Shown here: piece by piece, positions 692-57,906 of the stretch
How the letters are laid out: each line of letters opens with the position of its first letter
How positions within the stretch are numbered: position 1 is the stretch's first letter
Assembly: GCA_040219255.1 (NCBI GenBank)
Contig: JAVJSW010000008.1
Coordinates: 45,344-109,343 of the forward strand
Direction: 5' to 3'
DNA: 64,000 nucleotides
DNA from: Sumerlaeia bacterium
GTDB taxonomy: Bacteria; Sumerlaeota; Sumerlaeia; SLMS01; JAHLLQ01
Made by a program: the position numbers and the translations under genes
The notes under the pieces: model-generated
The model's database searches: none
Seen by the model: only the letters and a program-made list of their open reading frames with translations
What the model was told of the DNA's origin: nothing

Positions 692-802
692 TCGGAGAGA
701 GGTATCCTCTGCAACTAGTTTCAGGCATTGTCCCGGTTCGACTCAAAAAGGGCAACGGGAAATTCAAACCACTGAGAATACAGAAGAAAGCTCTGTCCTG
801 AT

Positions 803-2206: not shown

Positions 2207-3951
2207 GGCTGCGGTGTCCCGTACTGGGCCGAGTAAATCCGGCGGGCGCGGTCGATGCTGTCCTGCATTTCCGCCGAGTCCCGCATCCAGAGCGAAAACG
2301 CCGACCGCCCGACGGGAAAGGTGCCAATCCGCTCCCAGTCCGGGCTCTGGCGCAGGCGGGCCGAGAGACCGGTGAATTCGCCGGTCTGGCTGTCCTGGCG
2401 CACGGCGGTTACGATCCAAGTGACGCCGTACTCGTCGAGGTGTTCCTGCCATTCGGGAGCGCCAGCCAGGATTGACTGCTCCACGCGCCAGATGTCGGCA
2501 CCGAAGATGTCGAAACGCGGATCGGTGAAGACTTTGTGTTCCTCGGGCGAGAGTCGCCAGATGAGATAACCGGCGAACCAGTTTTCGTTGAACATGCGGC
2601 CTTTCGGCTGGGCCAGTTCGACGAAATCGGCGATGTTCGAGGGGAAGGCGCTCTTCACATACCCATCCCGATTCTGGAAGAAAGCGACGTTTCGCCGCGG
2701 GTAGTTATCCAGCCGCGCCGGGTCGAACTCCCAGGGAAACCAGTTCGTCAGCGCCAGATACGCCACCAGCAGAATCGGTAAGGCTCCGATCACGACGCGG
2801 CCCTGGCGGCAGGGCACGCACGCCTGAAAACGCGCCCAAAGAAGCGTACTGGTGCGGGCGAGGAGCGGCGCGGCGGCAACGCTGAGGAGCAGGAGATGGC
2901 GCACGTGTTTGAGGCCCTGCCACGCGAAGAAGGCCGCGATGACGGCTTCGGCGGAAAGGGGCAGGCGCTCTTCGTCGCGCCGCCGGATACCGGAGACGAC
3001 TTGCCAGATTACGAGCCCCGCGAGGAAGAAAACCGTGAAGTGGGAGATGATCGTGAAGCGAAACTCGGGGGGCTTCAATTCGCCGATCTGGGCGACCAAG
3101 TCGGTGTTACCGAGCACCCGCCCCGGCAGCGCGTACAGATGCCAACCGTAGGGGTTCGCAAAGGTGGCCAGGACGATCGCCGGGGCGAACGCCAGCCAGA
3201 AAACCGGCGGGCCGATCGAGGGCGGTTTCCGGAAAATGCGATGGAGCATGCCGGCCCAGCGATAGCGCTCGGCCAGCGAGGCCGCAAGGTCGCTGGCGCA
3301 GAACGCCGCCAGAATCACCGCCCCCGCCATCCAGGCCCCGTGCAGGTTCGTCCAGAGAGCGAAGAGCGGCACGAACACCCAGAGCCATCGCCTCCGCCAC
3401 CAGCCCTGCTGGACGCCCACAAGCATCAGGATTTCGAAGGCCAGCAACAGGTTGGAGACAACTGGCGGACGCGGAAAAAAGGTCCTTCGCCCGATGGCGC
3501 AGCACAGCATCGCCACAAAAAGCGCGATCCACCAGTTGCGCGAGATGCGTCCCGCCAGATACCAGACCAGAAGGTACGCCCCGCAGAGGACGAGCGCCTT
3601 CGCCAGGATCACCGCCCGCCAGCCGCCGAGCGTCGTGCCTTCGCCGGCCTGCCAGATTTTCCAGGCGATCAATTGGGTCAGCCATTCGTGGTTGTGCCAT
3701 TCGTAACTCTCGGCGGTATAGGCGAACACGTCGTAGGTGGGCAGGCCTTGTTCGGCGATGACCTTGCCCGCCTTCACATGCCACCAGGCGTCGTTATCGG
3801 CGCGGATGGGAACGAGGGACAGGGACATGCAGAAAAGCACGAGCAGAAGTGCGCTGGCGGCGGCCTGCCAGCGCTGGGGCCACGGCGAGGAAGCATCGCC
3901 GGGCGGATTCGGAGTCTGCTCTTCTGGCAATTCGTCGGCGGTCGGGGTCAC
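2203..3951 (-). CDS. Multi-pass membrane protein, probable GT-C fold glycosyltransferase
   Basis: DNDAWWHVKAG, HEWL, RP, LWTNLHG, NPYG, GYLIW and DPRFD motifs; GTG at 3951 overlaps the stop of the DUF151 gene. Confidence 0.7.
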   Translation of the reverse strand: MTPTADELPEEQTPNPPGDASSPWPQRWQAAASALLLVLFCMSLSLVPIRADNDAWWHVKAGKVIAEQGLPTYDVFAYTAESYEWHNHEWLTQLIAWKIWQAGEGTTLGGWRAVILAKALVLCGAYLLVWYLAGRISRNWWIALFVAMLCCAIGRRTFFPRPPVVSNLLLAFEILMLVGVQQGWWRRRWLWVFVPLFALWTNLHGAWMAGAVILAAFCASDLAASLAERYRWAGMLHRIFRKPPSIGPPVFWLAFAPAIVLATFANPYGWHLYALPGRVLGNTDLVAQIGELKPPEFRFTIISHFTVFFLAGLVIWQVVSGIRRRDEERLPLSAEAVIAAFFAWQGLKHVRHLLLLSVAAAPLLARTSTLLWARFQACVPCRQGRVVIGALPILLVAYLALTNWFPWEFDPARLDNYPRRNVAFFQNRDGYVKSAFPSNIADFVELAQPKGRMFNENWFAGYLIWRLSPEEHKVFTDPRFDIFGADIWRVEQSILAGAPEWQEHLDEYGVTWIVTAVRQDSQTGEFTGLSARLRQSPDWERIGTFPVGRSAFSLWMRDSAEMQDSIDRARRIYSAQYGTPQP

Positions 3952-4352
3952 TCGTCTTCGTTCATGACGTGGTCGAGCACATCGTCGGCCACGAAAATCG
4001 GGACATCCGCCTTGGCGGAAAGGACGACGGCGTCGCTGGGGCGGCAGTCGATCTTGACCATTTCGCCAGTTTCCAGACGCACCATGAGCTTTCCGTGAAA
4101 GGTGTCGTTGGTCAGGCTGTCGACGACCACGCCTTCCAGGGCGCCGTTCATGCCCTCGATCACGTTGAGGATCAGGTCGTGGGTCAGGGGCCGTGCGGCT
4201 TTGCGCCGGCGGACCGCGTCGTCGGCCTGACTGGCTTCGTAGAGGCCGATAAAAATAGGGAAGGAGCGCGCGCCGTCTTTTTCCTCCAGCACGATGATCT
4301 GGTGGGGAGAGACATGGCTGATCTGGATTTCCCGGAGTTCCATCTCGACCAT
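3948..4352 (-). CDS. Bifunctional nuclease family protein (DUF151)
   Basis: PIFIG.YEA, RPLTHDL and IDCRPSDAV motifs. Confidence 0.9.
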   Translation of the reverse strand: MVEMELREIQISHVSPHQIIVLEEKDGARSFPIFIGLYEASQADDAVRRRKAARPLTHDLILNVIEGMNGALEGVVVDSLTNDTFHGKLMVRLETGEMVKIDCRPSDAVVLSAKADVPIFVADDVLDHVMNEDE

Positions 4353-4466
4353 GAAGTGCTATCCTTTGAGGGGGAAAATGAGTCTCGCACGGGGCCATCC
4401 CAGCCACGAACCCCACAATGGAAATCGGGCGGGAAGCGGGCAACGGTTTTCATACAAGAGTCGCGC

Positions 4467-5405
4467 CTAAGGCGTGGCGCTCTCGTGCTCTTTTGTGGCC
4501 GAGAGGCATTCACAGGTGGCGGGAACCAGAAAGCGCAGGGCGTGGGGAAAGACCTCGAAGCGGAACAGGTCAGAGCGCATCGGTTCGCCGTCGGCGTTGA
4601 CCTGTAGGCCGCCGGGGGTATGCACCTCGATCCAGGGGAGTTTCTTGTAGAGGATGGCCGGGTTGTTGATTTCGCGGTGATTGAGTATCCGGGCGACGGC
4701 GGCGAAGCGTTCCTCGAAGGGCATGTCCGGAATGACCAGCACGTCCAGCAAGCCATCGTCGATGCGGGCGTCGTAGGCGACTTCGAAGCCGCCGCCGGAA
4801 GTGCGGCCGTTCTGAACACAAAGGCCCGCCAGGGGGCCCCGCCATTCGAAGTCATCGCTGACCAGGTGGGCTTCGAAGGGAACTTCCTGGAAGAGTTTCA
4901 TGAAGCCGGAAACATGGTAGGACGCGCCGCCGAGGAGGCGTTTGAGGGACGGCGGGGTGCCGGTGGTGATTTCCGCCGCCAGCCCACCGGTGGCGGAGTT
5001 GACGAAGAGACGGTCGTTGATGCGGCCGACATCGATGGGAACGGGGTCGATCTCGCAGAGGAGTTTCAGGTCTTCGCTGGGCGCGTCGTCCTGGAGCCCG
5101 ATGGCCCGGGCGAAGTCGTTGCCTGTGCCATAAGGCAACACACCCACGGCACAATCGGGGTGCGCGGAATTCAAGACGCCATTCACAACTTCGTTCAAGG
5201 TGCCGTCGCCGCCGGCTGCGATCACGGCACGGGCACCTTCCTCGACGGAGCGAGCGGCCCATCGCTCGGCTTCGCCGGGTTCCCAGAGCGCGTGCACCAG
5301 GATGTCGTGGCCCAGGGCCCGAAGGTGGTAAACGGCTTCGCGGAGAAACTCGTCCTGGGCGGCCCGGGGGTTCAAGAAAATGACAATGGGTTGGGGGGTG
5401 GTCAT
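4467..5405 (-). CDS. YegS/diacylglycerol kinase family lipid kinase
   Basis: LNP, AGGDGTLNEVVNG, PYGTGNDFAR, DDGLLDV and NADGE motifs. Confidence 0.9.
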   Translation of the reverse strand: MTTPQPIVIFLNPRAAQDEFLREAVYHLRALGHDILVHALWEPGEAERWAARSVEEGARAVIAAGGDGTLNEVVNGVLNSAHPDCAVGVLPYGTGNDFARAIGLQDDAPSEDLKLLCEIDPVPIDVGRINDRLFVNSATGGLAAEITTGTPPSLKRLLGGASYHVSGFMKLFQEVPFEAHLVSDDFEWRGPLAGLCVQNGRTSGGGFEVAYDARIDDGLLDVLVIPDMPFEERFAAVARILNHREINNPAILYKKLPWIEVHTPGGLQVNADGEPMRSDLFRFEVFPHALRFLVPATCECLSATKEHESATP

Positions 5406-5472
5406 GGGGTCCGGCTCTCGCGAAATCCTGTTCGCGTAGAGATAGCCAACTCCAGACCAGGAGGCCGCCGCG

Positions 5473-5895
5473 TCAGTGGACGGAATGAATGGCCCGGCCC
5501 ACCGCCAGACCGACGATCTGCTGGGCCTCGACGCGGCTCTGCACGAGGGGCACCTGGCGGAAATCGACCCAGCGGCGCTCGCGGTCGTCTCTCTCCGGCC
5601 AATCGTCGAGGACCTCCTCGACCCGCAGCAGGAATGTGCGAACCTGGTGCAAGGTGCCCCACTTCATATACTCCCACTCGCCCACTTCCGGCAGCAGGAT
5701 TTCGCCGCGGACGCCCGCTTCCTCGTAGGCTTCCTGGGCAGCCTGGGCGGGCGCGTCCCTGCCGGGATCGATGTCGCCCTTGGGAAAGATCCACTGGCGG
5801 GTGGTGCTGCTGGTGACGAGAAGGAACTCGAGTTCGCCATCCGCCGCGATGCGAAAGGGAATCGCGCCGGCTTGCTTCTGCAACTCGTAAAGCAT
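5473..5895 (-). CDS. NUDIX hydrolase
   Basis: QAGAIP, WIFPKG, Nudix box (AAQEAYEEAGV) and WPE...RERRW. Confidence 0.85.
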   Translation of the reverse strand: MLYELQKQAGAIPFRIAADGELEFLLVTSSTTRQWIFPKGDIDPGRDAPAQAAQEAYEEAGVRGEILLPEVGEWEYMKWGTLHQVRTFLLRVEEVLDDWPERDDRERRWVDFRQVPLVQSRVEAQQIVGLAVGRAIHSVH

Positions 5896-6022
5896 GAGCA
5901 ATCAATCCTTGCCGCTTGGCGGTCGGTTGCCTCAAAAATTCTTCGACGTTTTTTCTTGCCGTTCATAGCGGCGCAACGCATTCCTGCCCGAAAGATTCGC
6001 GTCGAGAGGCTCACCCAATTCT

Positions 6023-7159
6023 ATGTTCGATAACCTCGGACCCACCGCCCCGCGAAAAGTGCTCCTGCTCTGTGGAGGCCCCTCCGCGGAATACGTCGTT
6101 TCCCTCACCAGCGCCCGATGCGCGGCCCACGCCCTGGACCGCCATCGCTATCAGCTTCGGGTGGCTTGCGTGACAGACGACGGTTCCTGGATTGTTCCCG
6201 ACGAAAACTGGTCGTCGGATACGCCCCCTTCGCGCGTGGAAAAGTTCTTCGATCTGCTCGACATGCCCGAGCTTTGCCCCCGCGGCTACCTGACCCGCAG
6301 GGCCGCTGGCGAGGCGATCACCCGCATCCTGGCCTGGCGCCCCGACATCGTTCTGCCGATCATGCACGGTGCCTACGGCGAAGACGGCCGCCTTCAGGGC
6401 ATGCTCGATTTCCTGAACATCCCCTACGTGGGCAGCGGCGTTCTCGCCAGCTCGCTCTCCATGGACAAGAAACGCACCAAGGACTTCCTGGCCGCCAACG
6501 GCATCCGCGTCGCCCCTCACGTCCTGATCCAATCCGCTTCATCGCAGATGCTCAAAGAAGATCAGATGGCGGCGGCGGGAAACCTGATGGGCTGGCCGCT
6601 GGTGGTGAAGCCCAATCGCGGCGGCTCGTCCATCGCCTCCGGCATCGCCCGCGGCGAAGAGGAACTGCGCTCGCTGGTGCTGCGCGCCACCGACGCCGAT
6701 TCGGAAATCCTGATCGAGCAATACGTCGCCGGGCGGGAAGTGACCTGCGGCATTTTGGACATGGCCGAAAGTTTCGGCGGACGAGTGCTTTGCCCGCCGA
6801 CGGAAATCCGCCCCAAGTCTTCCCACTTCTTCGATTTCGATGCCAAGTACCGCCCCGGCGCCAGCGAGGAAATCACCCCCGCTCCCCTGCCCGACGAAGT
6901 GACCAACCGCATCCACGCGATGGCGGAAAAAGCCCATGACCTCCTGGGCTGCAAAGGCATGAGCCGCAGCGACTTCATGGTCAAAGACAACGGCCAGCCA
7001 ATCTATCTGGAAACCAACACGATCCCCGGGCTCACCTCCACATCCCTCCTGCCGCAAGGCGCGGCGGCCCTCGGAATCAACATGACGACCCTGCTCACGG
7101 GGCTCATCGAAGGCGCCTTCGAGCGCTTGATCGAACAACAAACCCGGCGCCACGCCTGA
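6023..7159 (+). CDS. ddl: D-alanine--D-alanine ligase
   Basis: GGPSAEYVVS, HGAYGEDG, SMDK, GSSI, FDFDAKY and LETNTIPGLT motifs. Confidence 0.93.
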   Translation: MFDNLGPTAPRKVLLLCGGPSAEYVVSLTSARCAAHALDRHRYQLRVACVTDDGSWIVPDENWSSDTPPSRVEKFFDLLDMPELCPRGYLTRRAAGEAITRILAWRPDIVLPIMHGAYGEDGRLQGMLDFLNIPYVGSGVLASSLSMDKKRTKDFLAANGIRVAPHVLIQSASSQMLKEDQMAAAGNLMGWPLVVKPNRGGSSIASGIARGEEELRSLVLRATDADSEILIEQYVAGREVTCGILDMAESFGGRVLCPPTEIRPKSSHFFDFDAKYRPGASEEITPAPLPDEVTNRIHAMAEKAHDLLGCKGMSRSDFMVKDNGQPIYLETNTIPGLTSTSLLPQGAAALGINMTTLLTGLIEGAFERLIEQQTRRHA

Positions 7160-7208
7160 TCCCCGGTCGGCAGCGTCTGAATCAGCCGGACGAACACCGC
7201 CCGGCAAG

Positions 7209-7237
7209 TTGACGTTTTGGGCCAAACAGACAAAACT
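7209..7237 (+). promoter_or_regulatory. Putative sigma70-type promoter for the small ORF
   Basis: TTGACG-N17-AAAACT followed by an AT-rich stretch. Confidence 0.35.
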
Positions 7238-44315: not shown

Positions 44316-45356
44316 TTATTCCGGTTCGATGCCGTATTCCCGGCACACCGCCAGGAAATCTTCGGGAAGCTCATCCCTAAAGGTGAGCCAGCGACTCGCT
44401 TTGTTGGGATGCTGGAACTTCAGCCGCACCGCGTGAAGCATCATGCGGTGCGTGTTCTTGCGCTTCGCCACGCTTTTCTTTTTTCCCGATGGCCGCTCTT
44501 TCGGGTCGCGCGCCGCGGGAACGATCTTCCAGTACACCGGATCGCCCAGCACCGGGCAACCGGCGGCGGCGCAATGGATGCGAATCTGGTGCTGGCGGCC
44601 CGTTTCGAGCCGTAGCTCGAGGAGCGAGACGCCATTCTTGCGCTGCTTCACCCGAAAGTGAGTGATGGCTTCCCGCTCCTCGCCCTTCAGGGCGACCTTG
44701 CCCGCCTCGGGCATCGGGCCCACCACCCGCCGCACGCCGTCGGCGCCGATACCCAAGACGTTGTGCCACGTGCCTGTGTCGCTCGACGGACCGCCCTGCA
44801 CCAAAGCGAAGTAGCGGCGCTCCATGGTGCGGCCGGCCGCCTGCTTCTGAAGGATTCTTCCCGCGTCGACGGTCTTGCCGAGAACCATGACGCCGCTGGT
44901 CAGTTTGTCGAGGCGCTGCACGACGACCGGGTTGATGACGGGCTGTTTCTTGGCACGCCAGTAGTGCTTGACGATTTCGACGACGGGCTGGCCCCCCTGC
45001 TCGTCCTGAGTGGGTTGCACCAGAACTCCGGCGGCCTTTGAAACCACCACCAGGTCGTCGTCGTCGTGGAGAACGCGAACCCGCTCGGCGAGGGACTTCC
45101 GCTTGGGGGTGCCTTCGCCTCGCAGCCCATGCCGCAAATCGACCGCGAGGTCCTGGCCGGGCTCGAGGATCGTGTCCAGATCGGTCAGCGGCTCGCCGCC
45201 GGTGGTGACGAGGTTGTTGTTGACCATGAGCACGTAGGTGCGGCTGGGCAGGCCCGGCAAGAGCCGTTCGAGGAGCTGGCGCAATCGAAGCTCCGCCCAA
45301 CGGTCTTCGTAGGGAAATTCGTAGAGCTTCTGGGGAAGAGAGAGTTTCTTGGACAT
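44316..45356 (-). CDS. RluA/RluD family pseudouridine synthase
   Basis: VVSKAAG, QRLDKLTSG, TGRQHQIRIH, GDPVY and MLHA. Confidence 0.9.
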   Translation of the reverse strand: MSKKLSLPQKLYEFPYEDRWAELRLRQLLERLLPGLPSRTYVLMVNNNLVTTGGEPLTDLDTILEPGQDLAVDLRHGLRGEGTPKRKSLAERVRVLHDDDDLVVVSKAAGVLVQPTQDEQGGQPVVEIVKHYWRAKKQPVINPVVVQRLDKLTSGVMVLGKTVDAGRILQKQAAGRTMERRYFALVQGGPSSDTGTWHNVLGIGADGVRRVVGPMPEAGKVALKGEEREAITHFRVKQRKNGVSLLELRLETGRQHQIRIHCAAAGCPVLGDPVYWKIVPAARDPKERPSGKKKSVAKRKNTHRMMLHAVRLKFQHPNKASRWLTFRDELPEDFLAVCREYGIEPE

Positions 45357-45530
45357 CAGGGGCGGCAGCGTACCCGCCGCCGCCCGCCGCGCAAGGGCAG
45401 ATCGCTGTGGAGCGGAAAGAGAATCGCCGGCTGCTCCTCCAGAGTCCGATCGGGCACGTTGGCGGCAAGCGAATCGGACTTGGCGCCGGGGCGCCCTCGC
45501 GCACACGATGGGGACTCAGGAAAGCGGGCC

Positions 45531-45561
45531 TTGACGTATCGCCTACCAAGTTAGTAGGAAT
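45531..45561 (+). promoter_or_regulatory. Sulfite reductase promoter with an overlapping palindromic operator
   Basis: TTGACG at 45531 followed by CCTAC-N7-GTAGG (45542-45558). Confidence 0.5.
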
Positions 45562-45591
45562 TCGGCCGCACAACACGACCACGGAAGGTTT

Positions 45592-47346
45592 TTGACCGTG
45601 ACTTCTCCCTCGGGCAATAGCGAGACTCCTCTCAAGAAAAGCAAAGTCGAAGAAATCAAGGAGGCCAGCAGCGGCCTCTATGGCACGATTCCCGACGAAA
45701 TCGGCGCCGAGCACGTTTGCTTCAGCGAGACGAGCATCCAGGTCCTCAAGCACCACGGCACCTATCAGCAAGACAACCGCGACCTGCGTAGCGAGCGCCG
45801 CAAAGCCGGTCTCGACAAGGACTACCGCATGATGGTCCGCACCAAGACGCCCGGCGGCCTGATGACCGCTGAAGGCTATCTGGCCTGCGACGATCTCGCC
45901 AGCAAGTACGGCCAGGACGACCTGCGCATCACCAGCCGCCAGGGCTTCCAGTTCCACGGCGTTCTCAAGGGCAACCTGCGCGCCCTGATCAAGGACCTGA
46001 ACACCTTCGCCCAGATGCACACCAAGGGCGCCTGTGGCGACGTGGTGCGCAACGTGACGTGCAGCAACGTGGTGGATATCGACCCCGCCTACGCGAAGCT
46101 CGGCGCCGACCTCTTCGCGCTCTCCACGAAGATCAGCGACCACTTCCTGCCCCAGTCCAGGAGCTACTACGACCTGTGGCTGGACGACGAGAAGGTCTCG
46201 ATCGATGCCGATGGCAACGTGTCCTACAAGGCCAAACACGCGGCGAAGCCCGAGGACGAACCGATCTACAAGCAAGCCTACCTGCCCCGCAAGTTCAAGA
46301 TCGGCGTCGCCACGGATTTCGATAACTCGATCGATGTCTATACGAACGATCTGGGCGTGATCGCCTGCACCAAAGACGGTAAGATCACCGGCTACGAGAT
46401 TCTGATCGGCGGCGGCCTGGGGCACAGCCACTCCAAACAGGACACCTACGCCCGTCTCGGCTCGGCCATCGCCAACGTCGCCGAATCGGAAATCATTCCC
46501 GTCATCGAAGCCGTCGTCGGCGTGCAGCGCGATTTCGGCAACCGCGAGCAGCGCCATCAGGCCCGCATGAAATACACCATCGACGGCATGGGCCTGGAAG
46601 CCTTCCGCGAGAAGGTGCAGGAATATTACGGCAAGCCCCTGCCCGCGGCCACCGGCATCGCGCCCAGCGCCCAGCCGGATTATTTGGGCTGGCACAAGGA
46701 AATCACTCCGGGCCTGAACTATGTCGGTATCTGGGTCGAGAACGGCCGCATCCGCGATTTCGCCGATGGCATCAAGTTCCGCACCGGCCTGCGGAAAATC
46801 ATCGAAACCTATAAGCCATCCGTGCGCCTGACCGCCCACCACAACATTGTCCTCTCGGGCATCGGCGACGCGGACGTGGATGCCGTGAAGGCCATCATGG
46901 CCGAGTACGGTCTGCCCACGCAGGACAGCATCAGCCCCCTGCGCCGGATGGAAATGGCCTGCCCCGCGCTGCCCCTCTGCGGTCTGGCGCTGGCTGAGGC
47001 GGAGCGCGAGATGCCCCGCCTCCTCAAGCAGGTCGAAGACCTGGGCCACGGCGACGCGGACGTCATCATCCGTATGACCGGCTGCCCGAATAACTGCGCC
47101 CGGCCCGCCTCGGCGGAAATCGGCATCATTGGCCGCGGACCCAACAAGTACAACGTCTATGTGGGCGGCAACCGCACCGGCACACGCCTGAACACGTTGG
47201 TCAAGGACACCATCACGGTGGAAGACCTGCCGGCGACGCTCGGCAAACTTCTGGGCGACTGGAAGGCGGAACGCGAGGACGGCGAGGCCTTTGGCGACTG
47301 GGCCCACCGCGTGGGATACGAAGAGCTGACGGCGCGGCTGGCGTAA
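45592..47346 (+). CDS. cysI: Sulfite reductase hemoprotein (siroheme/4Fe-4S)
   Basis: HGTYQQDNRD, TSRQGFQFHG, ACGDVVRN, YLPRKFK, ACPALPLCGLA and TGCPNNC. Confidence 0.9.
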   Translation: MTVTSPSGNSETPLKKSKVEEIKEASSGLYGTIPDEIGAEHVCFSETSIQVLKHHGTYQQDNRDLRSERRKAGLDKDYRMMVRTKTPGGLMTAEGYLACDDLASKYGQDDLRITSRQGFQFHGVLKGNLRALIKDLNTFAQMHTKGACGDVVRNVTCSNVVDIDPAYAKLGADLFALSTKISDHFLPQSRSYYDLWLDDEKVSIDADGNVSYKAKHAAKPEDEPIYKQAYLPRKFKIGVATDFDNSIDVYTNDLGVIACTKDGKITGYEILIGGGLGHSHSKQDTYARLGSAIANVAESEIIPVIEAVVGVQRDFGNREQRHQARMKYTIDGMGLEAFREKVQEYYGKPLPAATGIAPSAQPDYLGWHKEITPGLNYVGIWVENGRIRDFADGIKFRTGLRKIIETYKPSVRLTAHHNIVLSGIGDADVDAVKAIMAEYGLPTQDSISPLRRMEMACPALPLCGLALAEAEREMPRLLKQVEDLGHGDADVIIRMTGCPNNCARPASAEIGIIGRGPNKYNVYVGGNRTGTRLNTLVKDTITVEDLPATLGKLLGDWKAEREDGEAFGDWAHRVGYEELTARLA

Positions 47347-47354
47347 GGTTCCGG

Positions 47355-47388
47355 GAGGCGGCCCGATGGGGGCCGCCTCCATGCTTTT
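47355..47388 (+). terminator. Rho-independent terminator after sulfite reductase
   Basis: GGAGGCGGCCC...GGGCCGCCTCC stem followed by T-rich runs. Confidence 0.7.
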
Positions 47389-47646
47389 CCCCAACTTTTT
47401 CCATTTTTTCGGACATCAAGGTTTAAGTCCGTGACTTTTGCCCTTGACGTTGTGGGTGGTTATTTGTGCCCGTAAGGGCGGATGCCGAAATACACTTTCG
47501 AAACTGGCTTCCCACTCCCCTCCAAACGAAACGCTGCCCGCCGGGTTTTCCCGCCCGAGGGGTTTGGTTTGGCCGGGTTGTGTTCCTTCTCCCGCTCGCG
47601 TTGATGAACGCTGCAATTCGAACCCCGCTCCGAAGAGGTACCAGCA

Positions 47647-49317: not shown

Positions 49318-49893
49318 ATGAAAACCCTCCACCTCACCTGCAACCACTGCGGCGCGCCGCTCGATGTGGCGGAAAACGCCAACTTCGTGACCTGCGGCCA
49401 TTGCGGGTCGCGGCTGAAGGTGGAGCGCACCGAGTCGTCCTACTCCACCTCGGTTCTGGAGAGCATCGACCGCCGCACCCAAGACATCCAGGAAGACCTG
49501 GAAAAGATCCGCCTTCATCACGAGCTGGAGCGCCTGGACCGGGAATGGGAGCGGAGCGGAGGGACGCCGCAAACCGCTCGCGACAAACTCCATGAGCCCA
49601 CCCGGTCCAAGCCTGGAGGGCTCATCGCAGGCGCGGTGATTCTGTCGCTGACTTTTTCGGGAATGTTCGGCATTCTGCAGAAGGCGTTGTGGAGCGGGAG
49701 TTCGTTGTGGGCTGCTTTGGTGTCGGGCGTGTTTATCCTGATCGTGGTGGGCTTGGTGGTCTTGATCGGAAAAGAATTCTTCACTCACGTCCTCGACGGA
49801 TACCACAACCCAACTCCGGAAGAAATCTACCGGAACCGCCGCGAGGAATTGCTGAAGCAATTGAGCGAACGCGAGAATAAGCGCGGCCGCTGA
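49318..49893 (+). CDS. Zinc-ribbon + coiled-coil + 2-TM protein, paralog A
   Basis: CNHCG...CGHCG, then LERLDREW, then two TM helices. Confidence 0.8.
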   Translation: MKTLHLTCNHCGAPLDVAENANFVTCGHCGSRLKVERTESSYSTSVLESIDRRTQDIQEDLEKIRLHHELERLDREWERSGGTPQTARDKLHEPTRSKPGGLIAGAVILSLTFSGMFGILQKALWSGSSLWAALVSGVFILIVVGLVVLIGKEFFTHVLDGYHNPTPEEIYRNRREELLKQLSERENKRGR

Positions 49894-49929
49894 CCGTAAG
49901 GTTACCTAGCGAAAGGGCTCGCCTCTGTG

Positions 49930-50502
49930 ATGAAGACCCTCCACCTCACCTGCAACCACTGCGGCGCACCGCTCGATGTGGCGGAAAACGCCAACTTCGT
50001 GACCTGCGGCCACTGCGGGTCGCGGCTGAAGATCGAGCGCACCGAGTCGTCCTACTCCACCTCGGTTCTGGAGAGCATCGACCGCCGCACCCAGGACATC
50101 CAGGAAGACATCGAAGTCCTGCACTTGCAGAACGACCTGGAACGCCTGGATCGCGAGTGGGAGCACGAGCGTGAGTCGCTTCTGATGTACGACAAACATG
50201 GGCGGGCGCATGAGCCGTCGAAGGCCACGACCATCGCTCAGGCAATCTTTGGCGTGGTGTTCTTGGTCGTCGCGTTCACTCTGGTGACAGGCGGAAATGC
50301 CTTCCGAACTTTTGGTTCGGCGCTGCCCAGCATGCTCTTCATGGTTGTGGCTGCCATCGTGGTTTTGGGACTCGTGGCCGGTCTCTTCAGGTCTTTCGGC
50401 AAAGCTGGCCACTACGCCACCCGCCAATCGGATTATCATGCACGAAGGCATCGACTGCTCGCGCAGATGGAGCGCAAGCGCCGGCGCGGCTCCCGGCCGT
50501 GA
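49930..50502 (+). CDS. Zinc-ribbon + coiled-coil + 2-TM protein, paralog B
   Basis: Same N-terminus as paralog A with a different TM region. Confidence 0.8.
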   Translation: MKTLHLTCNHCGAPLDVAENANFVTCGHCGSRLKIERTESSYSTSVLESIDRRTQDIQEDIEVLHLQNDLERLDREWEHERESLLMYDKHGRAHEPSKATTIAQAIFGVVFLVVAFTLVTGGNAFRTFGSALPSMLFMVVAAIVVLGLVAGLFRSFGKAGHYATRQSDYHARRHRLLAQMERKRRRGSRP

Positions 50503-50543
50503 ACTCGCTGCCAGATCGGAGAAATGCCGCTCCATTCCACAAC

Positions 50544-50580
50544 CTCTCTGCAACCTCTGTCCTCTGTGCCCTCTGCGGTA
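50544..50580 (-). repeat. Copy of the CAGAG-periodic intergenic repeat
   Basis: Reverse complement TACCGCAGAGGGCACAGAGGACAGAGGTTGCAGAGAG, similar to the copy at 16358. Confidence 0.55.
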
Positions 50581-50693
50581 GAATATCTTCTCTGAACCCT
50601 CCGTCGCCGATTTCACTTGAAAGCTTCCCGTCCGTATCCTATGACAGTGGCAATGAACCAACCTCCATCCCAGCCGCTGGAAAGGACACGATC

Positions 50694-51134
50694 ATGGAAT
50701 TCAGGAAGGCTTATTCGTCCCGACTCGAGAACCATCCCCTGTGGGATTTGTCGCTCCGCCTGATTGCCGCCTGGGCGGGCATCATGATCGTGCTCAGTTT
50801 GCTACACACGGCCAACGTGGGCCGCGAACTGGTGGCCGCTCTGCCGCTGATCGAGATCACGCTGATCGTCTTCGTGGCGGGCCTGACGATGTACCTGATG
50901 CGGGCTCTGTTGTGGGCGCGGCACTATGGAACGCTCTCGCCTGACGCGTCGAAGACGATAACCGGCTTGATCCGGTCCGGCCAGTTCCCGTTCAAGAGTA
51001 GCCGGAGGCATCACACCACCCATGGCACCTTCTTCGGCTCCTCGCAAGAAACCCCCAACCGCAAGCGCGACCACCGTTCATCTGGTTTCTGTCGGCGTCA
51101 GCCATGCCCCAGCGGGCTCCGCGGACGTCGTTGA
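50694..51134 (+). CDS. Small 2-TM membrane protein
   Basis: GAAAGGA RBS and two hydrophobic helices; 3' end overlaps the next gene by about 110 nt. Confidence 0.55.
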   Translation: MEFRKAYSSRLENHPLWDLSLRLIAAWAGIMIVLSLLHTANVGRELVAALPLIEITLIVFVAGLTMYLMRALLWARHYGTLSPDASKTITGLIRSGQFPFKSSRRHHTTHGTFFGSSQETPNRKRDHRSSGFCRRQPCPSGLRGRR

Positions 51135-52434
51135 CGCCCTCTCGAAAGACATCAAGTCCCAGTCCCCCGATCGCTTGATCGCCATCGGGACGGAGGAGGG
51201 CCGGGAAAACGCCGAGCGGCTGGTCAAGCTCGTCGGCCTGAAACGGGGCGCCTCCGAGGTCGTCCAACTCGAGTCGGCTCAAAGTCTCGAGGAAGCCTAT
51301 CGGGCGGCGAACGATTTGCTGCGGCGCCTGGACGAGGAGGGCGTCCCGCCGGAAAACATCGTGATTCACTACACCGCCGGGACCAAGGTCATGTCCGCCG
51401 GTCTGGTGCTGGCGGGTGTGGGCCATGGTTGCCGCTGCCTGCGCTATCTCTTTTCCGCCGGTCCGGGCAGTGGCGCCTCCAGCCCGGTGAACGTCTCCTC
51501 TGCCGCCGTGCGGGCCGAGGGCGACATCCGCCGCGCCACTTTGCTGCTGCGGGATTTCCGCTTTCGCAGCGCCGCCGATCTGTTGCGAACGGTAGACCCC
51601 AGCCTTCTTTCCGACAAATCCATCGATCGCTGGAAGTCCCTCAAGGTCCTTTCGGGGGCCTACGCCGCCTGGGACAATTTCCGCGTCCGGCGCTTCCTGC
51701 GGGATTATCGGTCCCTGCGGGGGAAAATCGAGGCCGCCAGGGAACTGACCCTGGCGCCGGAAACACTCAAGGCCCTCGACCGCATCGCCAAGGTGGATCG
51801 CAGCGTCGGCACCTATCCGGTCGAGTTGATCTATGACCTGTATAACAACGCGGTGCGGCGCCTGATGGAGCGCCGCACCGACGACGCGGTGGTGCGCCTG
51901 TGCCGCGCCGGGGAACTTTTCGCGCAGAATCTCCTGATGGCGAACTTCCGCATCCGCACCGACGACGTGGAAATCCGCAAAGTTCCGCCCCGCCAGCGTG
52001 TGCTTTTCGAGGCGTTGCGGCGCCTCGACGACGCGAAGATCAAAATCGGACTGCGCAAATCCTACGAACTGCTCTCGTACCTCGGTCATCCGGTGGGCCA
52101 GGCCTTTGTTCAGAACGACGCTCTGAGCGGCATCCTGGCCGAGCGGCGCCACGTGGTGCTCTTCCATGGCACCCAGCCCGCGCAGACCCGCGTGGCAATG
52201 GAGCTTCACGACGAGTTGCTGGCGCTCTTCCGGCTCGAAATCTCGGACTTCTCCGGAGCCGCCGCGCGCCAGCAATTTCCCTGGATCGACAACGCGGATG
52301 TCTTGACACGGTTGCGAGCGGTCAAGGAAGAGGACACGCCGGTCACGTCCCAGGAGCAGCCCCAAAAGGCGCCCGCGGCGAGCGACCGGCCCCGAAACGC
52401 AAGTCCCCGCAAAGGCAGGAAGACGGCGCGATGA
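51022..52434 (+). CDS. CARF-HEPN protein, TIGR02710-like (CRISPR-associated family)
   Basis: SVG, HYTAGTKVMSAGL (CARF), Y..WDNF, DLYNNAVRR...DDAVVRLCRAGEL, HEPN-like RRHVVLFHG. Confidence 0.8.
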   Translation: MAPSSAPRKKPPTASATTVHLVSVGVSHAPAGSADVVDALSKDIKSQSPDRLIAIGTEEGRENAERLVKLVGLKRGASEVVQLESAQSLEEAYRAANDLLRRLDEEGVPPENIVIHYTAGTKVMSAGLVLAGVGHGCRCLRYLFSAGPGSGASSPVNVSSAAVRAEGDIRRATLLLRDFRFRSAADLLRTVDPSLLSDKSIDRWKSLKVLSGAYAAWDNFRVRRFLRDYRSLRGKIEAARELTLAPETLKALDRIAKVDRSVGTYPVELIYDLYNNAVRRLMERRTDDAVVRLCRAGELFAQNLLMANFRIRTDDVEIRKVPPRQRVLFEALRRLDDAKIKIGLRKSYELLSYLGHPVGQAFVQNDALSGILAERRHVVLFHGTQPAQTRVAMELHDELLALFRLEISDFSGAAARQQFPWIDNADVLTRLRAVKEEDTPVTSQEQPQKAPAASDRPRNASPRKGRKTAR

Positions 52435-52949
52435 CGAAACAAATCTCCGCGAAGGAAATCATCGACGGGCTCAAACTGATGCCCCATCCGGAAGGCGGTT
52501 TCTTTCGCGAGGTCCATCGCTCGCCCATGACCGTCAAGCACCCGAGTCCGCCGGCCAACGAAACCCCGACCCGCGCGGCGATGACGAGTATCTACTTCCT
52601 GCTCGAAGGCAGCGACTTCTCCGCCTTTCATCGCGTCCGCAGCGACGAGACCTGGCATCTCTACGGCGGAGGGCCTCTCGAGTTGCATATGCTGTCTCAG
52701 AAGGGCGAATACGAAAGGCGCATTCTCGGCTTCGACCTCGGCGCCGGCTACACGCCCCAGATCACCATTCCCGCCATGTCCTGGCAGGCCGCCTGCCCCG
52801 CACCAAACGTGTCTTACGCGCTCTGCGGATGCACCGTGGCGCCGGGGTTCGATTTCGTGGATTTCAAAATGGTGAGCTTCCGCGAGCTGAGCCTCAGTTA
52901 TCCGCAGCACGAAGACCTGATCCGCCGCTTCACCCGAGGGCCGCGGTAG
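52431..52949 (+). CDS. Cupin DUF985 family protein
   Basis: PHPEGGFFRE, TSIYFLL, HRVRSDETWH, WQAA and GCTVAPGFDF; ATGA overlap with the CARF gene. Confidence 0.92.
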   Translation: MTKQISAKEIIDGLKLMPHPEGGFFREVHRSPMTVKHPSPPANETPTRAAMTSIYFLLEGSDFSAFHRVRSDETWHLYGGGPLELHMLSQKGEYERRILGFDLGAGYTPQITIPAMSWQAACPAPNVSYALCGCTVAPGFDFVDFKMVSFRELSLSYPQHEDLIRRFTRGPR

Positions 52950-52956
52950 GCGTTGG

Positions 52957-53169
52957 GAACCACGGAGAGCGGTGAGTACAGAGGTTTCATAGAGGGAAGA
53001 TCAGCCGCAGATGAATAGGATGAATGGGATTTTCTTTTTCCGACAATGAGGGATAGCTTATCCCTCTTCCTCAAATCGCTCTGAAAAAAAAGTTGCTTCT
53101 AATCATCCTTTTCATTCTATTGCTCTGCGACTTTAGCCTTCTCTGTGAAGCCTCCAACTTCTGTGGTTC
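52957..53169. repeat. Nested inverted repeats between convergent genes
   Basis: Outer GAACCACGGAG / CTTCTGTGGTTC, inner GATGAATAGGATGAAT / ATCATCCTTTTCATT, central GAGGGATA-GCT-TATCCCTC hairpin. Confidence 0.6.
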
Positions 53170-53175
53170 ATCAAC

Positions 53176-54783
53176 TCACGGCTTGCGCGCCCGCTCCTCG
53201 GTGGACTGGTCTTTGATGAAGCCCTCGGCCAGCGCCTTTTGCTCGGGATGGCGTTCGAAAAGGAGCACCTGGTTCAGGATTTTCTTCGCCAGGGCCTTGC
53301 TCGCATGGCCCTTCTTCAGGCGCCATTGCCAGTTGCCCGCTTCACGGCCGGGGAAGTTCATGCGGGCTTCGCCACCCAGGCCGAGGAAGTCCTGCATCGG
53401 AATGATCGTGGTGTTGCCCACACTGGCCAGAGCCGCCCGGATCAGGGTTTCGTGCGCCTGCTTGCCATCGGTGTCGAAGTACGCCTTGAAGAGCGCCTTG
53501 TCGCTCGGCGTGGCATCGTCCTTCCACCAGCCGGCGGTCGTATTGTTATCATGCGTGCCGGTGTAAACGGTGCTGGTGACTTCGACCTTATGGGGCTGGA
53601 AATCGCATCCCGGGTCCGGAACGGGGGGCTTGGTGCTGGCGGCGGTCCAGCCGAACTGGAGAACCTTCATGCCGGGCAGGTTGAATTCGTGGCGCAGCGC
53701 TTCCACTTCGGCGGTGATGACGCCGAGGTTTTCGGCGATAATCGGCAGGTCCTTGCCGACGCCCTTTTGAAGCGCCTTGAACAGCTTGTTGCCGGGGCCG
53801 GGGATCCACTTGCCGTTGATGGCGGTTTCTTCGCCGAAAGGCACGGACCAGTAGGCTTCGAAGCCGCGGAAGTGATCGAGCCGGATCACGTCCACCAGTT
53901 CCAGGATGCCCTTCATGCGGGTGATCCACCACTTGTAGCCGTTCTTGTCCATCAAATCCCAGTCATAGAGCGGGTTGCCCCAGAGCTGACCGGTTTCGCT
54001 GAAGTAATCGGGCGGCACGCCCGCGACGGCCTTCGGGTTGCCCTTCTTGTCGATCTGGAACAGGTTCTGATTGGCCCAGGTGTCGGCGCTGTCGAAGGCC
54101 ACGTAAATCGGCATGTCGCCGACGATGGCGATGTTGCGTTCGCGGGCGGCGGCGCGCACCGTTTCCCACTGATCGAAAAACAGGAACTGGAGGAAAACCT
54201 GGTATTCGATCTGCTCCGCGTGCTCCTTGCGGGCTTTCGCCACGGCGGCTTCATCGCAGACGCGCAGTCCTTTGGCCCACGTGTTCCAGACCCGGCCGTT
54301 GTGCGCGTCCTTGAGGGCGATGAAGAGCGCGTAGTCTTCCAGCCACACCTTGGTCATCTTCTTTTTGCGCCAAGCGTCCAGGCGCTTGGCCACGTCGTCG
54401 AACTTGCCTTTTGCGCGACCCGCCTGGTAGCGGTCGTAGGTCTTGCGCAGCAGCGCGTTTTTCCACTCGATCACCGGACCGTAGTCCACCTTGTCTTCCG
54501 GAAAGGAGACACCCTTCAGGTCGGCGGCGGTCAGGAGACCCTCCTTCTTGAGAAGGTCCGGGCTGATCAGGAAGGTGTTGCCGGCGAAGGCGGAGAAGCA
54601 CTGATAGGGCGAGTCGGCGAAGCCCGTGGGGCCCAGGGGAAGCACCTGCCAAATGCCGATGCCGGCCTCCTTCATCCAATCGAGGAACTTGATGCATTCC
54701 GGCCCCAGGTCGCCAATTCCATAAGCTCCGGGCAGGGACGTGGGATGGAGCAAGACTCCGGCAAGACGGCGATCTAGGGTCAC
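53176..54783 (-). CDS. malQ: 4-alpha-glucanotransferase (amylomaltase, GH77)
   Basis: GVLLHPTSLPG, WQVLPL, GVPPDYFSETGQLWGNPLY, RLDHFRG and YTGTHDN. Confidence 0.96.
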   Translation of the reverse strand: MTLDRRLAGVLLHPTSLPGAYGIGDLGPECIKFLDWMKEAGIGIWQVLPLGPTGFADSPYQCFSAFAGNTFLISPDLLKKEGLLTAADLKGVSFPEDKVDYGPVIEWKNALLRKTYDRYQAGRAKGKFDDVAKRLDAWRKKKMTKVWLEDYALFIALKDAHNGRVWNTWAKGLRVCDEAAVAKARKEHAEQIEYQVFLQFLFFDQWETVRAAARERNIAIVGDMPIYVAFDSADTWANQNLFQIDKKGNPKAVAGVPPDYFSETGQLWGNPLYDWDLMDKNGYKWWITRMKGILELVDVIRLDHFRGFEAYWSVPFGEETAINGKWIPGPGNKLFKALQKGVGKDLPIIAENLGVITAEVEALRHEFNLPGMKVLQFGWTAASTKPPVPDPGCDFQPHKVEVTSTVYTGTHDNNTTAGWWKDDATPSDKALFKAYFDTDGKQAHETLIRAALASVGNTTIIPMQDFLGLGGEARMNFPGREAGNWQWRLKKGHASKALAKKILNQVLLFERHPEQKALAEGFIKDQSTEERARKP

Positions 54784-55098: not shown

Positions 55099-56190
55099 GT
55101 GCAACGAGAAGTCCTCCGCGACCGCTTCCTAGGCACCATCACCGGTCTGGCCATCGGCGAAGCGCTGGGGGCGCAGTTCGAAGGGCGCAGCGCCACCGAT
55201 ATCCAGATGTCCCTGGGCAACGCGCCCACCAAAATGGAAGGCGGCGGCCGATACAAGCTCAAGCCCGGTGAAAACACCGACGACGCCCAGCAGGTCATCC
55301 TCATGATGGACTCGCTGAACACGATGGACAATTTCGACGGGCCCGACATCGCCCTGCGCCTGGTGAACTGGGCCACGACCCGTCCCAAAGGGCTCGGTCC
55401 CCACAGCGAAGAAATCCTCAACCGCCTCAAGCGCAAGCTCGACGATTGGACCGAACCGGCGCACCGCGTCTGGTACCGCAGCAGCGGCACCGCGGCCGGC
55501 AACGGCGCCTTCGCCCGGGCTCTCGTGGTCGGACTCTTCTATTGGAACGACATCGACGAAATGGTGGAGAACACCATCCGCGCCTGCCAGATCACCCACT
55601 GGGATCCGCGCACCATCGAATCCGCCCTCGTTCTCAATTTCCTTCTGGTGCAGTGCCTGCACCAACGGTTCTCGCCGGACCTCTACCATCAGGCGATCAT
55701 GTTCCTGGAGGCGACGCGCCGTTCGCCCAAGTTCGAGAAAATGGTCCTCGACGTCGATTTCGAGAAACTCCACGAGTACTCCAACTTCACTCCATACGCC
55801 CCCTATGACACGGAACCGGAAGTGGTGCTGACAGCTCTCAAGCGCGTCCCGAACATGCAACTCATGGACCTGCGCACCACCGGCTTCTCGGTCCACACGA
55901 TGCAGTTGGCGGTCTGGATTCTGTTCAATTCGCGCAACTTCCAGGACGCCATCAGCCGCGCCGTGCGGCTCGGAGGCGACTCGGACACGCAAGGGGCGGT
56001 CGTCGGCGCCCTGATGGGCGCCCGCGTCGGATTGGCGCAGATCCCCGGCTATTGGCGCGCGCCCCTCATCAGCCACGCCGACATCACCCGCAAGGCGGAA
56101 GTGCTCCTGGACCGGTCCCTCGAAGCCGAGGAGAAGCAGTTCCAGGAGGGCAAGCGCGCACCCACCAAGGAACCGCCGCGAGTTCTCTAG
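55099..56190 (+). CDS. ADP-ribosylglycohydrolase family protein (divergent)
   Basis: GEALG, TDD, GNGA, ITH and GGDSDT motifs. Confidence 0.85.
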   Translation: MQREVLRDRFLGTITGLAIGEALGAQFEGRSATDIQMSLGNAPTKMEGGGRYKLKPGENTDDAQQVILMMDSLNTMDNFDGPDIALRLVNWATTRPKGLGPHSEEILNRLKRKLDDWTEPAHRVWYRSSGTAAGNGAFARALVVGLFYWNDIDEMVENTIRACQITHWDPRTIESALVLNFLLVQCLHQRFSPDLYHQAIMFLEATRRSPKFEKMVLDVDFEKLHEYSNFTPYAPYDTEPEVVLTALKRVPNMQLMDLRTTGFSVHTMQLAVWILFNSRNFQDAISRAVRLGGDSDTQGAVVGALMGARVGLAQIPGYWRAPLISHADITRKAEVLLDRSLEAEEKQFQEGKRAPTKEPPRVL

Positions 56191-56942: not shown

Positions 56943-57671
56943 CTACTTGCGATAGCGGATCAGATCGCCATCGCTGACCGTGCCGTTCGTCGGGTCGTAA
57001 GTCAGATCGGCGAGCGCCAGGTCCAAGCTGTTGAATTGCGTATCGACAGCCGTGGTGACGGCGGTATCGGTCTGCTCGATGTAGTGAATGACGGCGCGTT
57101 CATTCACATCGCCCAGGCGCGCCGGACTGCCGGTGTCGCTGGCGGTGGAGAGCGGATTGGTGTTCGTCGTTCCGATGCCGCCCGGATCGAGGACGTCGGC
57201 GTCGGGGCCGAAGCTGGTCATGATCCAGCCGTTCTGCAAATCCTTGGCATTGCGGAACTGATAGGTCAGGGGGCCGCCCACCTGCTCGGCGAAAACATCG
57301 CGCGGCACCGTCGTCACATACGCGATGGGAGTGGTCAAGGAGGCGAAATCGGACCCGGCAGTCAGCGCCCCGTTGCGCAGCGCGAAGGTATAGTAGCCCG
57401 CCGTCAGGCCATACTGATCCAGGAAGGCGATGGCGTCGAGGGGCTGCTTGCTGGCGCTGTCGGAGCCCTCCGGGTACTTGTTGAAGTCGACGCGATAGGA
57501 TTCGACGGCGGTTTCGATGGTGCGCATGTCCGAGAGGGCGCGACTGACCTTGGCGCGGATTTGCGCCTCCAGGAAGTTGGGTACGGCGATCGCCGCCAGA
57601 ATGGCGATAATGGCGACAACAATCAGCAGTTCAATCAACGTGAAGGCGCGAGACGGCGCGGAACGGAACAT
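56943..57671 (-). CDS. Prepilin-type N-terminal cleavage/methylation domain protein
   Basis: RAFTLIELLIVVAIIAILAAIAVPNF, LTTPIAY, SFGPD and YDPTNGTVSDGD. Confidence 0.88.
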   Translation of the reverse strand: MFRSAPSRAFTLIELLIVVAIIAILAAIAVPNFLEAQIRAKVSRALSDMRTIETAVESYRVDFNKYPEGSDSASKQPLDAIAFLDQYGLTAGYYTFALRNGALTAGSDFASLTTPIAYVTTVPRDVFAEQVGGPLTYQFRNAKDLQNGWIMTSFGPDADVLDPGGIGTTNTNPLSTASDTGSPARLGDVNERAVIHYIEQTDTAVTTAVDTQFNSLDLALADLTYDPTNGTVSDGDLIRYRK

Positions 57672-57906
57672 TAAGGGAAAACCTTCTGGGAGAGATGGCG
57701 GAGGAAACTGTCCGCTTGGGAGGCAGCGTCGCCCGGGGAAGAGGTTGGTAGGGCGGACATATTGGGCGGCGCAACCGCTTTTTAGGCATACCAAACTTCT
57801 TCTTGAGTGACATACTTTTTCTTAGTCTCTCGGAATTACCCGCTCGTCTTTTCCCTTGATTTCCCGGGCTGGCCCTGCTCACTTATCCCCAGCTTGTGCG
57901 AAATCC

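Follow-up and report, generated by a model that had tools for sequence, protein, structure and literature searches.

A Thermus-type Csm6 homologue encoded among housekeeping genes in Candidatus Sumerlaeota, independently of type III CRISPR-Cas

Why should a bacterium keep a gene for a CARF-HEPN protein of the kind that serves type III CRISPR-Cas systems, with no such system nearby? The question is raised by csm6h, a gene for a protein of 470 residues in a stretch of 64,000 nucleotides (the window) from a Sumerlaeia bacterium (assembly GCA_040219255.1, contig JAVJSW010000008.1, positions 45,344 to 109,343). The accepted view of Csm6 and Csx1 RNases is that they serve as effectors for cyclic oligoadenylates made by Cas10. 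The original prediction, made from the letters of the window, saw in csm6h an orphan effector, either a trans-acting defence effector or a domesticated nucleotide-sensing RNase, and in the three open reading frames (ORFs) of which it is one a candidate for an undescribed system. On balance, we favour the explanation that csm6h is a Thermus-type Csm6 detached from CRISPR, vertically inherited as a single gene among housekeeping genes, and acting independently of type III systems as a ligand-gated RNase with a remodelled active site.

The product of csm6h is a member of the Thermus-type Csm6 family and has its CARF-6H-HEPN fold. It matches TIGR02710 with 127.4 bits (cut-off 83.9; E 6.4e-37) over model positions 5–381 of 384, the 'Csm6 HEPN domain' PF09670 with 80 bits against a cut-off of 27 (E 2e-22; residues 268–401), and the PADLOC model 'CARF1--CARF_HEPN' with 195 bits. 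The Pfam matches to Csm6_6H and CARF lie below threshold; PF22205 (Csm6_6H) reaches 19.2 bits in csm6h, under the cut-off, and exceeds it in the homologue at locus L009. The gene and its domains are placed as follows.

51022 to 52434, + strand: csm6h, encoding a 470-residue CARF-6H-HEPN protein of TIGR02710/TtCsm6 type, assigned by family models and fold
51070 to 51501, + strand: CARF domain, residues ~17–160, delimited by the secondary structure of the model and motif conservation
51502 to 51807, + strand: helical middle domain (6H/HTH), residues ~161–262, all-helical in the model
51808 to 52326, + strand: HEPN domain, residues ~263–435, assigned by PF09670

The ATG at 51022 has a GGAGG 13 nt upstream. 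The database gene call for csm6h (P0001) encompasses 419 residues and would remove the first conserved strand; because conservation in the alignment starts at residue ~17, this call is too short. Long N-terminal extensions seen in the homologues at L009 and L015 were rejected as low-complexity read-through upstream of the true start.

An AlphaFold2 model of csm6h, computed with 29 sequences, has a mean predicted local distance difference test (pLDDT) score of 84.2 and is Rossmann-like at the N-terminus and all-helical thereafter. A Foldseek search of the PDB with this model returned chains of the Thermus thermophilus protein TtCsm6 as its top eight matches (8jh1, 8jbb, 5fsh; E 1.2e-10 to 1.5e-9), the best of which, 8jh1_A, aligns over ~440 columns with ~20% identity at E 1.2e-10. 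A single-sequence phmmer search of csm6h against the PDB gave nothing relevant, and profiles were required. A profile of 27 diverse family members found TtCsm6 at E 3e-17 and aligned K122 with K137, R375 with R415, residue 376 with N416, and H382 with H422. For a profile of the close clade (A1), the best PDB sequence match was the Crn1 ring nuclease Sso2081 (E 5.6e-4), which agrees with the resemblance of the TtCsm6 CARF domain to Crn1 described in a passage of PMC10897365.

The CARF domain carries motif I as G25-V26-S27 and motif II as T118-A-G120-T121-K122 (51373–51387), together with the invariant Y142, whereas the HEPN motif reads R375-R376-H-V-V-L-F-H382-G383 (52144–52170). The two motifs named in the original prediction, HYTAGTK and RRHVVLFHG, are thus both present in the protein. 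A conserved basic segment comprises residues 311–351 and lies, with the HEPN motif, in the interface of the modelled dimer described below. The notion that this segment is a clade-specific insertion was ruled out, as it is present across the whole family.

A word-indexed search returned 28 proteins at 44–57% identity to csm6h, below which the identity drops to 28–32%, and contigs from one genome per species yielded ten csm6h loci, nine of them from Candidatus Sumerlaeota/Sumerlaeia. In a set of 75 genomes, taken as Candidatus Sumerlaeota by inference, the csm6h clade is found in 32 (21 of the 43 high-quality genomes; 26 of 59 genera), and the TIGR02710 model gives the same 32. Identity to csm6h is 56% for the only other carrier in the family, 44–47% at the level of the order and 33–40% at that of the class. 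Within the own family, the gene occurs in only one of the ten other genomes (G036).

The maximum-likelihood tree comprises 30 genome-derived sequences and 45 representatives and leaves out G012 and G019, in which the gene is split at contig ends, and G042; the thirtieth sequence, L012, comes from a Candidatus Sumerlaeia metagenome-assembled genome and groups with G041 of family f3. All 30 genome-derived sequences fall into one clade with a Shimodaira–Hasegawa-like approximate likelihood ratio (SH-aLRT) support of 99. The family groups are tight (f1, 99; f15, 100; f13, 100; f11, 99), and f1, f3 and f4 form a clade at the order level with a support of 100. The tree follows taxonomy, and the inheritance of csm6h in Sumerlaeota is one of old vertical descent with losses.

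The gene neighbourhoods set this clade apart from its relatives. A phmmer test compared 24 Cas queries, drawn from the type I-C loci of the own genome and the type III loci of G006, G052 and G063, with all ORFs of at least 80 codons. None of the 29 Sumerlaeota csm6h loci gave a match, the whole 64-kb window included; the gene is truly orphaned, as had been proposed. By contrast, the same test matched 50 of 80 metagenome loci of the nearest non-clade relatives. Among the sister-group loci with at least 6 kb of flanking sequence (n=42), 37 contain cas genes and 34 contain type III genes, the usual order being cas6-cas10-csm2-5, then the Csm6 gene, then cas1. No cas family was revealed when 208 neighbouring ORFs from 22 csm6h loci (105 in 10 loci and 103 in 12 further ones) were scanned with Pfam; L046, L047 and L052–L054 fall within the phmmer test and outside these scans. 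The genome G050 provides an internal control: its clade-type copy has housekeeping neighbours, and another TIGR02710 gene, bearing the motif RNNSILVHG, is located between Cmr2 and Cmr4. The neighbours of csm6h are housekeeping genes, in a synteny that is specific to each lineage:

families f3 and f4: pilQPONM, pta, csm6h, a membrane protein gene, trpF
family f15: a deacetylase gene, csm6h, murC
families f13 and f8: icd and mdh beside csm6h
L043 (G064:C3), 45 to 7212: csm6h directly after rplE...rplR-rpsE-rplO-secY-map, co-directional with this ribosomal-protein operon and at its tail

An ORF of 310 residues upstream of csm6h, ATGA-coupled to it in L006 and L007, was considered as an mCpol and rejected; it is signal-peptide/TPR-like, belongs to no Pfam family and was seen in one genus only. 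The conserved membrane-anchored protein downstream of csm6h in f3 and f4 (L006:3084–4118, − strand; counterparts in L007, L008, L010, L011 and L015) shows an odd fusion in the L006 copy, which carries a C-terminal ribosomal L7/L12 domain (PF00542; E 1.9e-25).

The absence of cas genes from the loci leaves the question of whether the genomes encode a signal maker elsewhere. The assembly that contains the window comprises 5.35 Mb in 83 contigs, with 92.08% completeness and 3.32% contamination. The Cas10/Csm1 model TIGR02578 gives only 16.2 and 14.4 bits against it, both on the first 90 model positions, and the genome has no match to Cmr2 (TIGR02577) or to the Cas10 palm domain (PF22335), nor to a RAMP, an mCpol or a SMODS CD-NTase. 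Within the 64-kb window there is no CRISPR-like array, and the composition is host-like, the GC content being 63.5% at the locus, 63.0% in the window and 63.6% in the genome, all in agreement with what had been read from the letters. The earlier description 'without CRISPR-Cas' holds for the window and fails for the genome, which has two complete type I-C loci (cas3-cas5c-cas8c-cas7-cas4-cas1; L037 and L038) at the starts of contigs C49 (1–9612) and C10 (1–9421). The C10 locus carries an array with the 32-nt repeat GTTTCAATCCACGCCTCCGCGAGGGAGGCGAC.

Across the phylum, Cas10 matches at E≤1e-5 to either of the two TIGRFAM models occur in 12 of the 75 genomes, ten of which exceed the curated cut-off. 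They are found in 6 of the 32 carriers of csm6h (G004, G012, G018, G050, G052 and G063; the match in G012 is a 28-bit match to the HD region) and in 6 of the 43 non-carriers. At the same threshold, no match to Cas10 is seen in 26 of the 32 carriers, among them the single-contig G066 and the 10-contig G036, and 28 of the 32 have none above the curated cut-off. Where a genome contains both Cas10 and csm6h, the two are always on different contigs. In the 75 genomes, mCpol (PF18182) is found only inside the Cas10 (Cmr2) genes of G027 and G063, and SMODS (PF18144) in only two genomes, both of which lack csm6h. The presence of the csm6h clade is independent of type III CRISPR-Cas, and its orthologues reside mostly in genomes with no Cas10 match.

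These counts also bear on the idea that csm6h is a type III effector kept on stand-by in the core genome and used in trans whenever a mobile type III module that makes cyclic tetraadenylate (cA4) is present. Some room is left for it by the intact state, in the clade, of the CARF motifs with which TtCsm6 and Crn1 bind and cleave cA4, and by the occurrence of type III loci in the phylum, with four to six carriers having both Cas10 and csm6h; moreover, the 12.5-kb contig of a III-A operon in G063 encodes no CARF effector, and csm6h is located elsewhere in that genome. However, Cas10 is not enriched in carriers and is missing from most of them, the III-B loci of G063 (Card1-like) and G050 have CARF effectors of their own, and occasional use hardly explains conservation at the level of the class without a signal maker. 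We consider the stand-by role unlikely. Of the two possibilities raised in the original prediction, the domesticated nucleotide-sensing RNase fits best, given the vertical descent and the lack of tracking with Cas10, and is preferred over the trans-acting defence effector.

As a separate observation, the III-A operon of G063 (L068, G063:C76, 574–10355; cas6-cas10-csm2-csm3-csm4-csm5-cas1) stands directly beside ftsZ, and csm6h in the window lies 1.8 kb downstream of ftsZ. This likeness is probably a coincidence.

The conservation of functional residues was analyzed in 30 clade sequences and in an outside set of 116 representatives, which remained after removal of 18 that the tree placed in the clade and most of which are not themselves in the tree. 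Invariant in 30 of 30 clade sequences are G25, G120, T121, K122 and Y142 of the CARF domain and R375, H382 and G383 of the HEPN domain, and motif I is mostly G-T-T. For the counterparts in TtCsm6, passages of PMC10897365 describe K137 as indispensable for the binding of cA4, T59/S60 as required both to cleave it and to activate the protein, and Y161 as required for its cleavage; RNase activity is abolished by each of the mutations R415A, N416A and H422A. The same logic is described for TTHB144 in part of PMC6599890, with residues K94, T10/T11 and H368.

The one systematic departure from the family concerns the position aligned with N416. None of the 30 clade sequences has Asn there (Arg in 17, Ser in 6, Gly in 5, Thr in 1 and Asp in 1), whereas it is present in 114 of the 116 outside representatives, the other two having Asp. 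The R-N-x-S-I-L-A-H-G motif is hence incomplete in csm6h, where the Arg and the His are kept and Asn is replaced by Arg. Among the 80 metagenome loci of non-clade relatives, the motif is readable in 73; 69 of these have Asn, 46 of them with cas matches. The four loci without Asn (three with RSKSILAHG and one with RDLSILAHG) have no cas matches, and the RSK motif also occurs in class-level members of Sumerlaeota. Since the clade has no Asn and the loci without Asn all lack cas matches, the loss of this residue coincides with the exit from CRISPR loci.

With the Asn gone, the protein might be a disarmed nuclease that no longer cuts RNA and serves as a ligand sponge, a ring nuclease or an RNA-binding regulator. 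The clade-wide replacement of a residue whose mutation inactivates TtCsm6 and the retention of the ring-nuclease motifs are both consistent with this. On the other hand, R375, H382 and G383 have remained invariant over a deep divergence, which is expected only if the site is used, and a sponge has no obvious use if the cell cannot make the ligand. Loss of RNA cutting is regarded as a doubtful alternative to a ligand-gated, remodelled RNase.

A model of the csm6h homodimer scores 0.80, against 0.00 for the best control, with at least 78% contact agreement between runs and a partner pLDDT of at least 81; the mark applied is reached by 20 of 30 proteins solved as one-chain pairs and by 1 of 23 solved as single chains. 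In the model, the interface comprises residues 117–123, 142, 327–345 and 376–387 and corresponds to the composite CARF and HEPN arrangement of TtCsm6. It contains R345, which is invariant in the clade, and G343 is in contact there with H382 of the partner chain. Because a solved TtCsm6 dimer exists, this result shows likeness and is not proof.

Based on these features, the favoured explanation would work as follows. The protein would still function as a head-to-head homodimer, whose CARF pocket, with the residues that bind and cleave cA4 in TtCsm6 and Crn1 kept, is predicted to bind a small ligand of the adenylate type. Binding would gate a composite HEPN RNase site in which the catalytic Arg and His are retained, and this site would have been remodelled by exchange of the near-universal Asn after the Arg for Arg, Ser or Gly. 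Something other than Cas10, mCpol or a CD-NTase would have to supply the activating ligand. As a tentative extension, such a source may belong to second-messenger signalling that operates without CRISPR: a cA4-like ligand, produced by an unrecognised enzyme or by RNA damage with release of A-rich oligonucleotides bearing 2',3'-cyclic phosphates, would gate the domesticated Csm6 (Arg, Ser or Gly for Asn). The RNase would then be a switch of the core genome for stress or infection and no accessory of adaptive immunity. This extension is possible, and we hold it with clearly less confidence than the explanation it builds on.

Several points weigh against a ligand-gated RNase that is independent of type III. 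As no source of the ligand was found, 'ligand-gated' is deduced from residue conservation alone. The absence of the Asn from all 30 clade sequences, combined with the effect of N416A on TtCsm6, means that the RNase activity may be lost or changed. Motif I of the window protein is G-V-S, unlike the G-T-T of the clade. The score of the homodimer model may echo the solved TtCsm6 dimer and not csm6h itself. Divergent forms of Cas10 could escape the two TIGRFAM models, and with 92% completeness in 83 contigs, a type III locus on unassembled DNA is possible for the own genome. Finally, 43 of the 75 genomes lack csm6h, so that it is dispensable.

A comparison with characterized systems helps to place the protein. 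TtCsm6 (TTHB152; 5FSH, 8JBB, 8JBC and 8JH1; TIGR02710/PF09670 plus PF22205) shares with csm6h the family model, the three-domain fold, a CARF motif II of the form T-x-G-T-K, whose Lys is indispensable in TtCsm6 for binding cA4, and the R-x6-H spacing of the HEPN motif; the head-to-head dimer is only modelled for csm6h. Unlike TtCsm6, to which it is ~20% identical, csm6h has no type III locus nearby and no Cas10 in the genome, and the counterpart of N416 is Arg in csm6h and R, S, G, T or D across the clade. In Crn1, motif I (G-T-S/T) and the Lys of motif II are the shown cA4-binding and cA4-cleaving residues, as stated in portions of PMC6599890 and PMC10897365. Crn1 differs in having no HEPN domain, and csm6h has Val in place of the first Thr of motif I; a ring-nuclease activity of csm6h is putative.

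CARF genes outside CRISPR-Cas are abundant, according to a section of PMC12669027, and one of PMC6546367 counts proteins of the TIGR02710 type among the largest clusters of type III accessory proteins. The two-gene modules of mCpol and a CARF-HEPN protein, predicted as abortive-infection systems in an extract of PMC8730458, likewise have a CARF-HEPN effector outside CRISPR-Cas. They differ from csm6h, which has housekeeping neighbours and no mCpol beside it, and in whose phylum mCpol is confined to two Cas10 genes. A search of the literature on TIGR02710, on CARF and Csm6 proteins outside CRISPR and on CRISPR in Sumerlaeota found no published description of the csm6h clade, which is not proof of absence.

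New here are the phylum-wide tally of the clade against Cas10, mCpol and SMODS, the contrast by the same method with cas-embedded sister groups, and the clade-wide replacement of the HEPN Asn. Throughout the phylum, conservation extends to the ligand pocket as well as to the catalytic Arg and His, yet most carriers have no known oligoadenylate synthase. If csm6h is active, an unrecognised signal source must exist in Sumerlaeota; if it is inactive, the clade is a clear example of a CRISPR effector that has been exapted. In either case it gives a defined sequence set for biochemistry, and the natural variation at the Asn position may inform engineered Csm6 reporters. The family name alone is no ground for calling such genes CRISPR-associated.

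In the window, csm6h belongs to a + strand unit of three tightly packed ORFs, separated by a 191-nt gap from two paralogous zinc-ribbon membrane genes upstream. The other elements of this unit are the following.

50617 to 50645, + strand: candidate −35/−10 hexamers TTGAAA-N17-TATGAC in the 191-nt gap, a weak feature that is not counted in the finding
50694 to 51134, + strand: 2-TM ORF, 146 residues with two hydrophobic transmembrane (TM) helices, an ORF without relatives (ORFan), delimited by GC content at third codon positions (GC3)
52431 to 52949, + strand: DUF985 cupin of 172 residues (PF06172), starting in an ATGA overlap (52431–52434) with csm6h and translationally coupled to it

This layout is as originally described, with the 2-TM ORF overlapping the start of csm6h, by 113 nt, and the cupin joined through the ATGA overlap. 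The promoter that had been proposed fared less well: its letters are in the sequence, but a consensus scan of 50300–53300 found no promoter-like site, and the hexamers are given no weight for this reason. The ORF list gives the 2-TM ORF as a GTG ORF of 211 residues starting at 50499. Its GC3 is 0.55 in 50499–50693 and 0.83 in 50694–51020, compared with 0.78–0.86 in neighbouring genes; the former segment, lacking a coding signal, is intergenic, and the ORF starts at 50694. It matches no Pfam, NCBIfam or PADLOC family and finds only itself among 5.8 billion proteins. It is probably a real, lineage-specific gene.

The cupin is assigned to PF06172 (Cupin_5/DUF985; E 3.4e-50, 170.2 bits against a gathering threshold of 25, model positions 1–138 of 139). 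In G036, which belongs to another genus of the same family and whose csm6h is 57% identical, it follows csm6h after 12 nt, and the region upstream of csm6h has no TM ORF and encodes, on the opposite strand, a sigma-54 regulator and a histidine kinase. The cupin occurs in 22 of the 75 genomes, including all ten other genomes of the family, of which only G036 has csm6h. No remnant of csm6h was detected within 1.5 kb upstream of the cupin in nine family loci of genomes that lack csm6h, and in the five f4 genomes that have both genes these are on different contigs. Hence the cupin belongs to the core genes of its family, and csm6h happens to adjoin it in two genera.

These observations decide largely against an undescribed three-gene defence operon of 2-TM protein, CARF-HEPN protein and cupin. 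The tight packing with its two overlaps, the coding-like GC3 of the 2-TM ORF and the csm6h-cupin order kept in G036 speak for such a system. The neighbours, however, are not the conserved ones that had been expected of it: the 2-TM ORF is an ORFan missing from G036, the cupin adjoins csm6h in only 2 of 32 carrier genomes and persists in its family without csm6h, neither protein matches PADLOC, and the other 27 loci have unrelated housekeeping neighbours. We regard the operon as very improbable. As part of the explanation favoured for csm6h, the 2-TM ORF and the cupin would be co-transcribed neighbours in the own lineage and not functional partners.

The two zinc-ribbon genes upstream of the unit are tandem paralogues (49318–49893 and 49927–50502, + strand) of 191 residues each, with a CxxC...CxxC zinc ribbon at the N-terminus and TM helices at the C-terminus. 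Over the first 60 residues the two agree at 59 of 60 positions, whereas the remainder has diverged, a pattern that suggests duplication or gene conversion in the recent past; the G036 orthologue of csm6h lacks these genes on its upstream side. Very long antisense ORFs are not genes and arise as artefacts from the GC content of 63%; an example is the one of 1005 residues at 44377–47394 (− strand), opposite ftsZ and an ORF that its translation suggests to be sulfite reductase-like. Downstream of the unit, an ADP-ribosylglycohydrolase-like ORF at 55099–56190 (+ strand), named from its translation, has no PADLOC match. A pseudopilin-like protein, likewise named from its translation, is encoded at 56943–57794 (− strand) and has the prepilin-type N-terminus FTLIELLIVVAIIAILAAIA.

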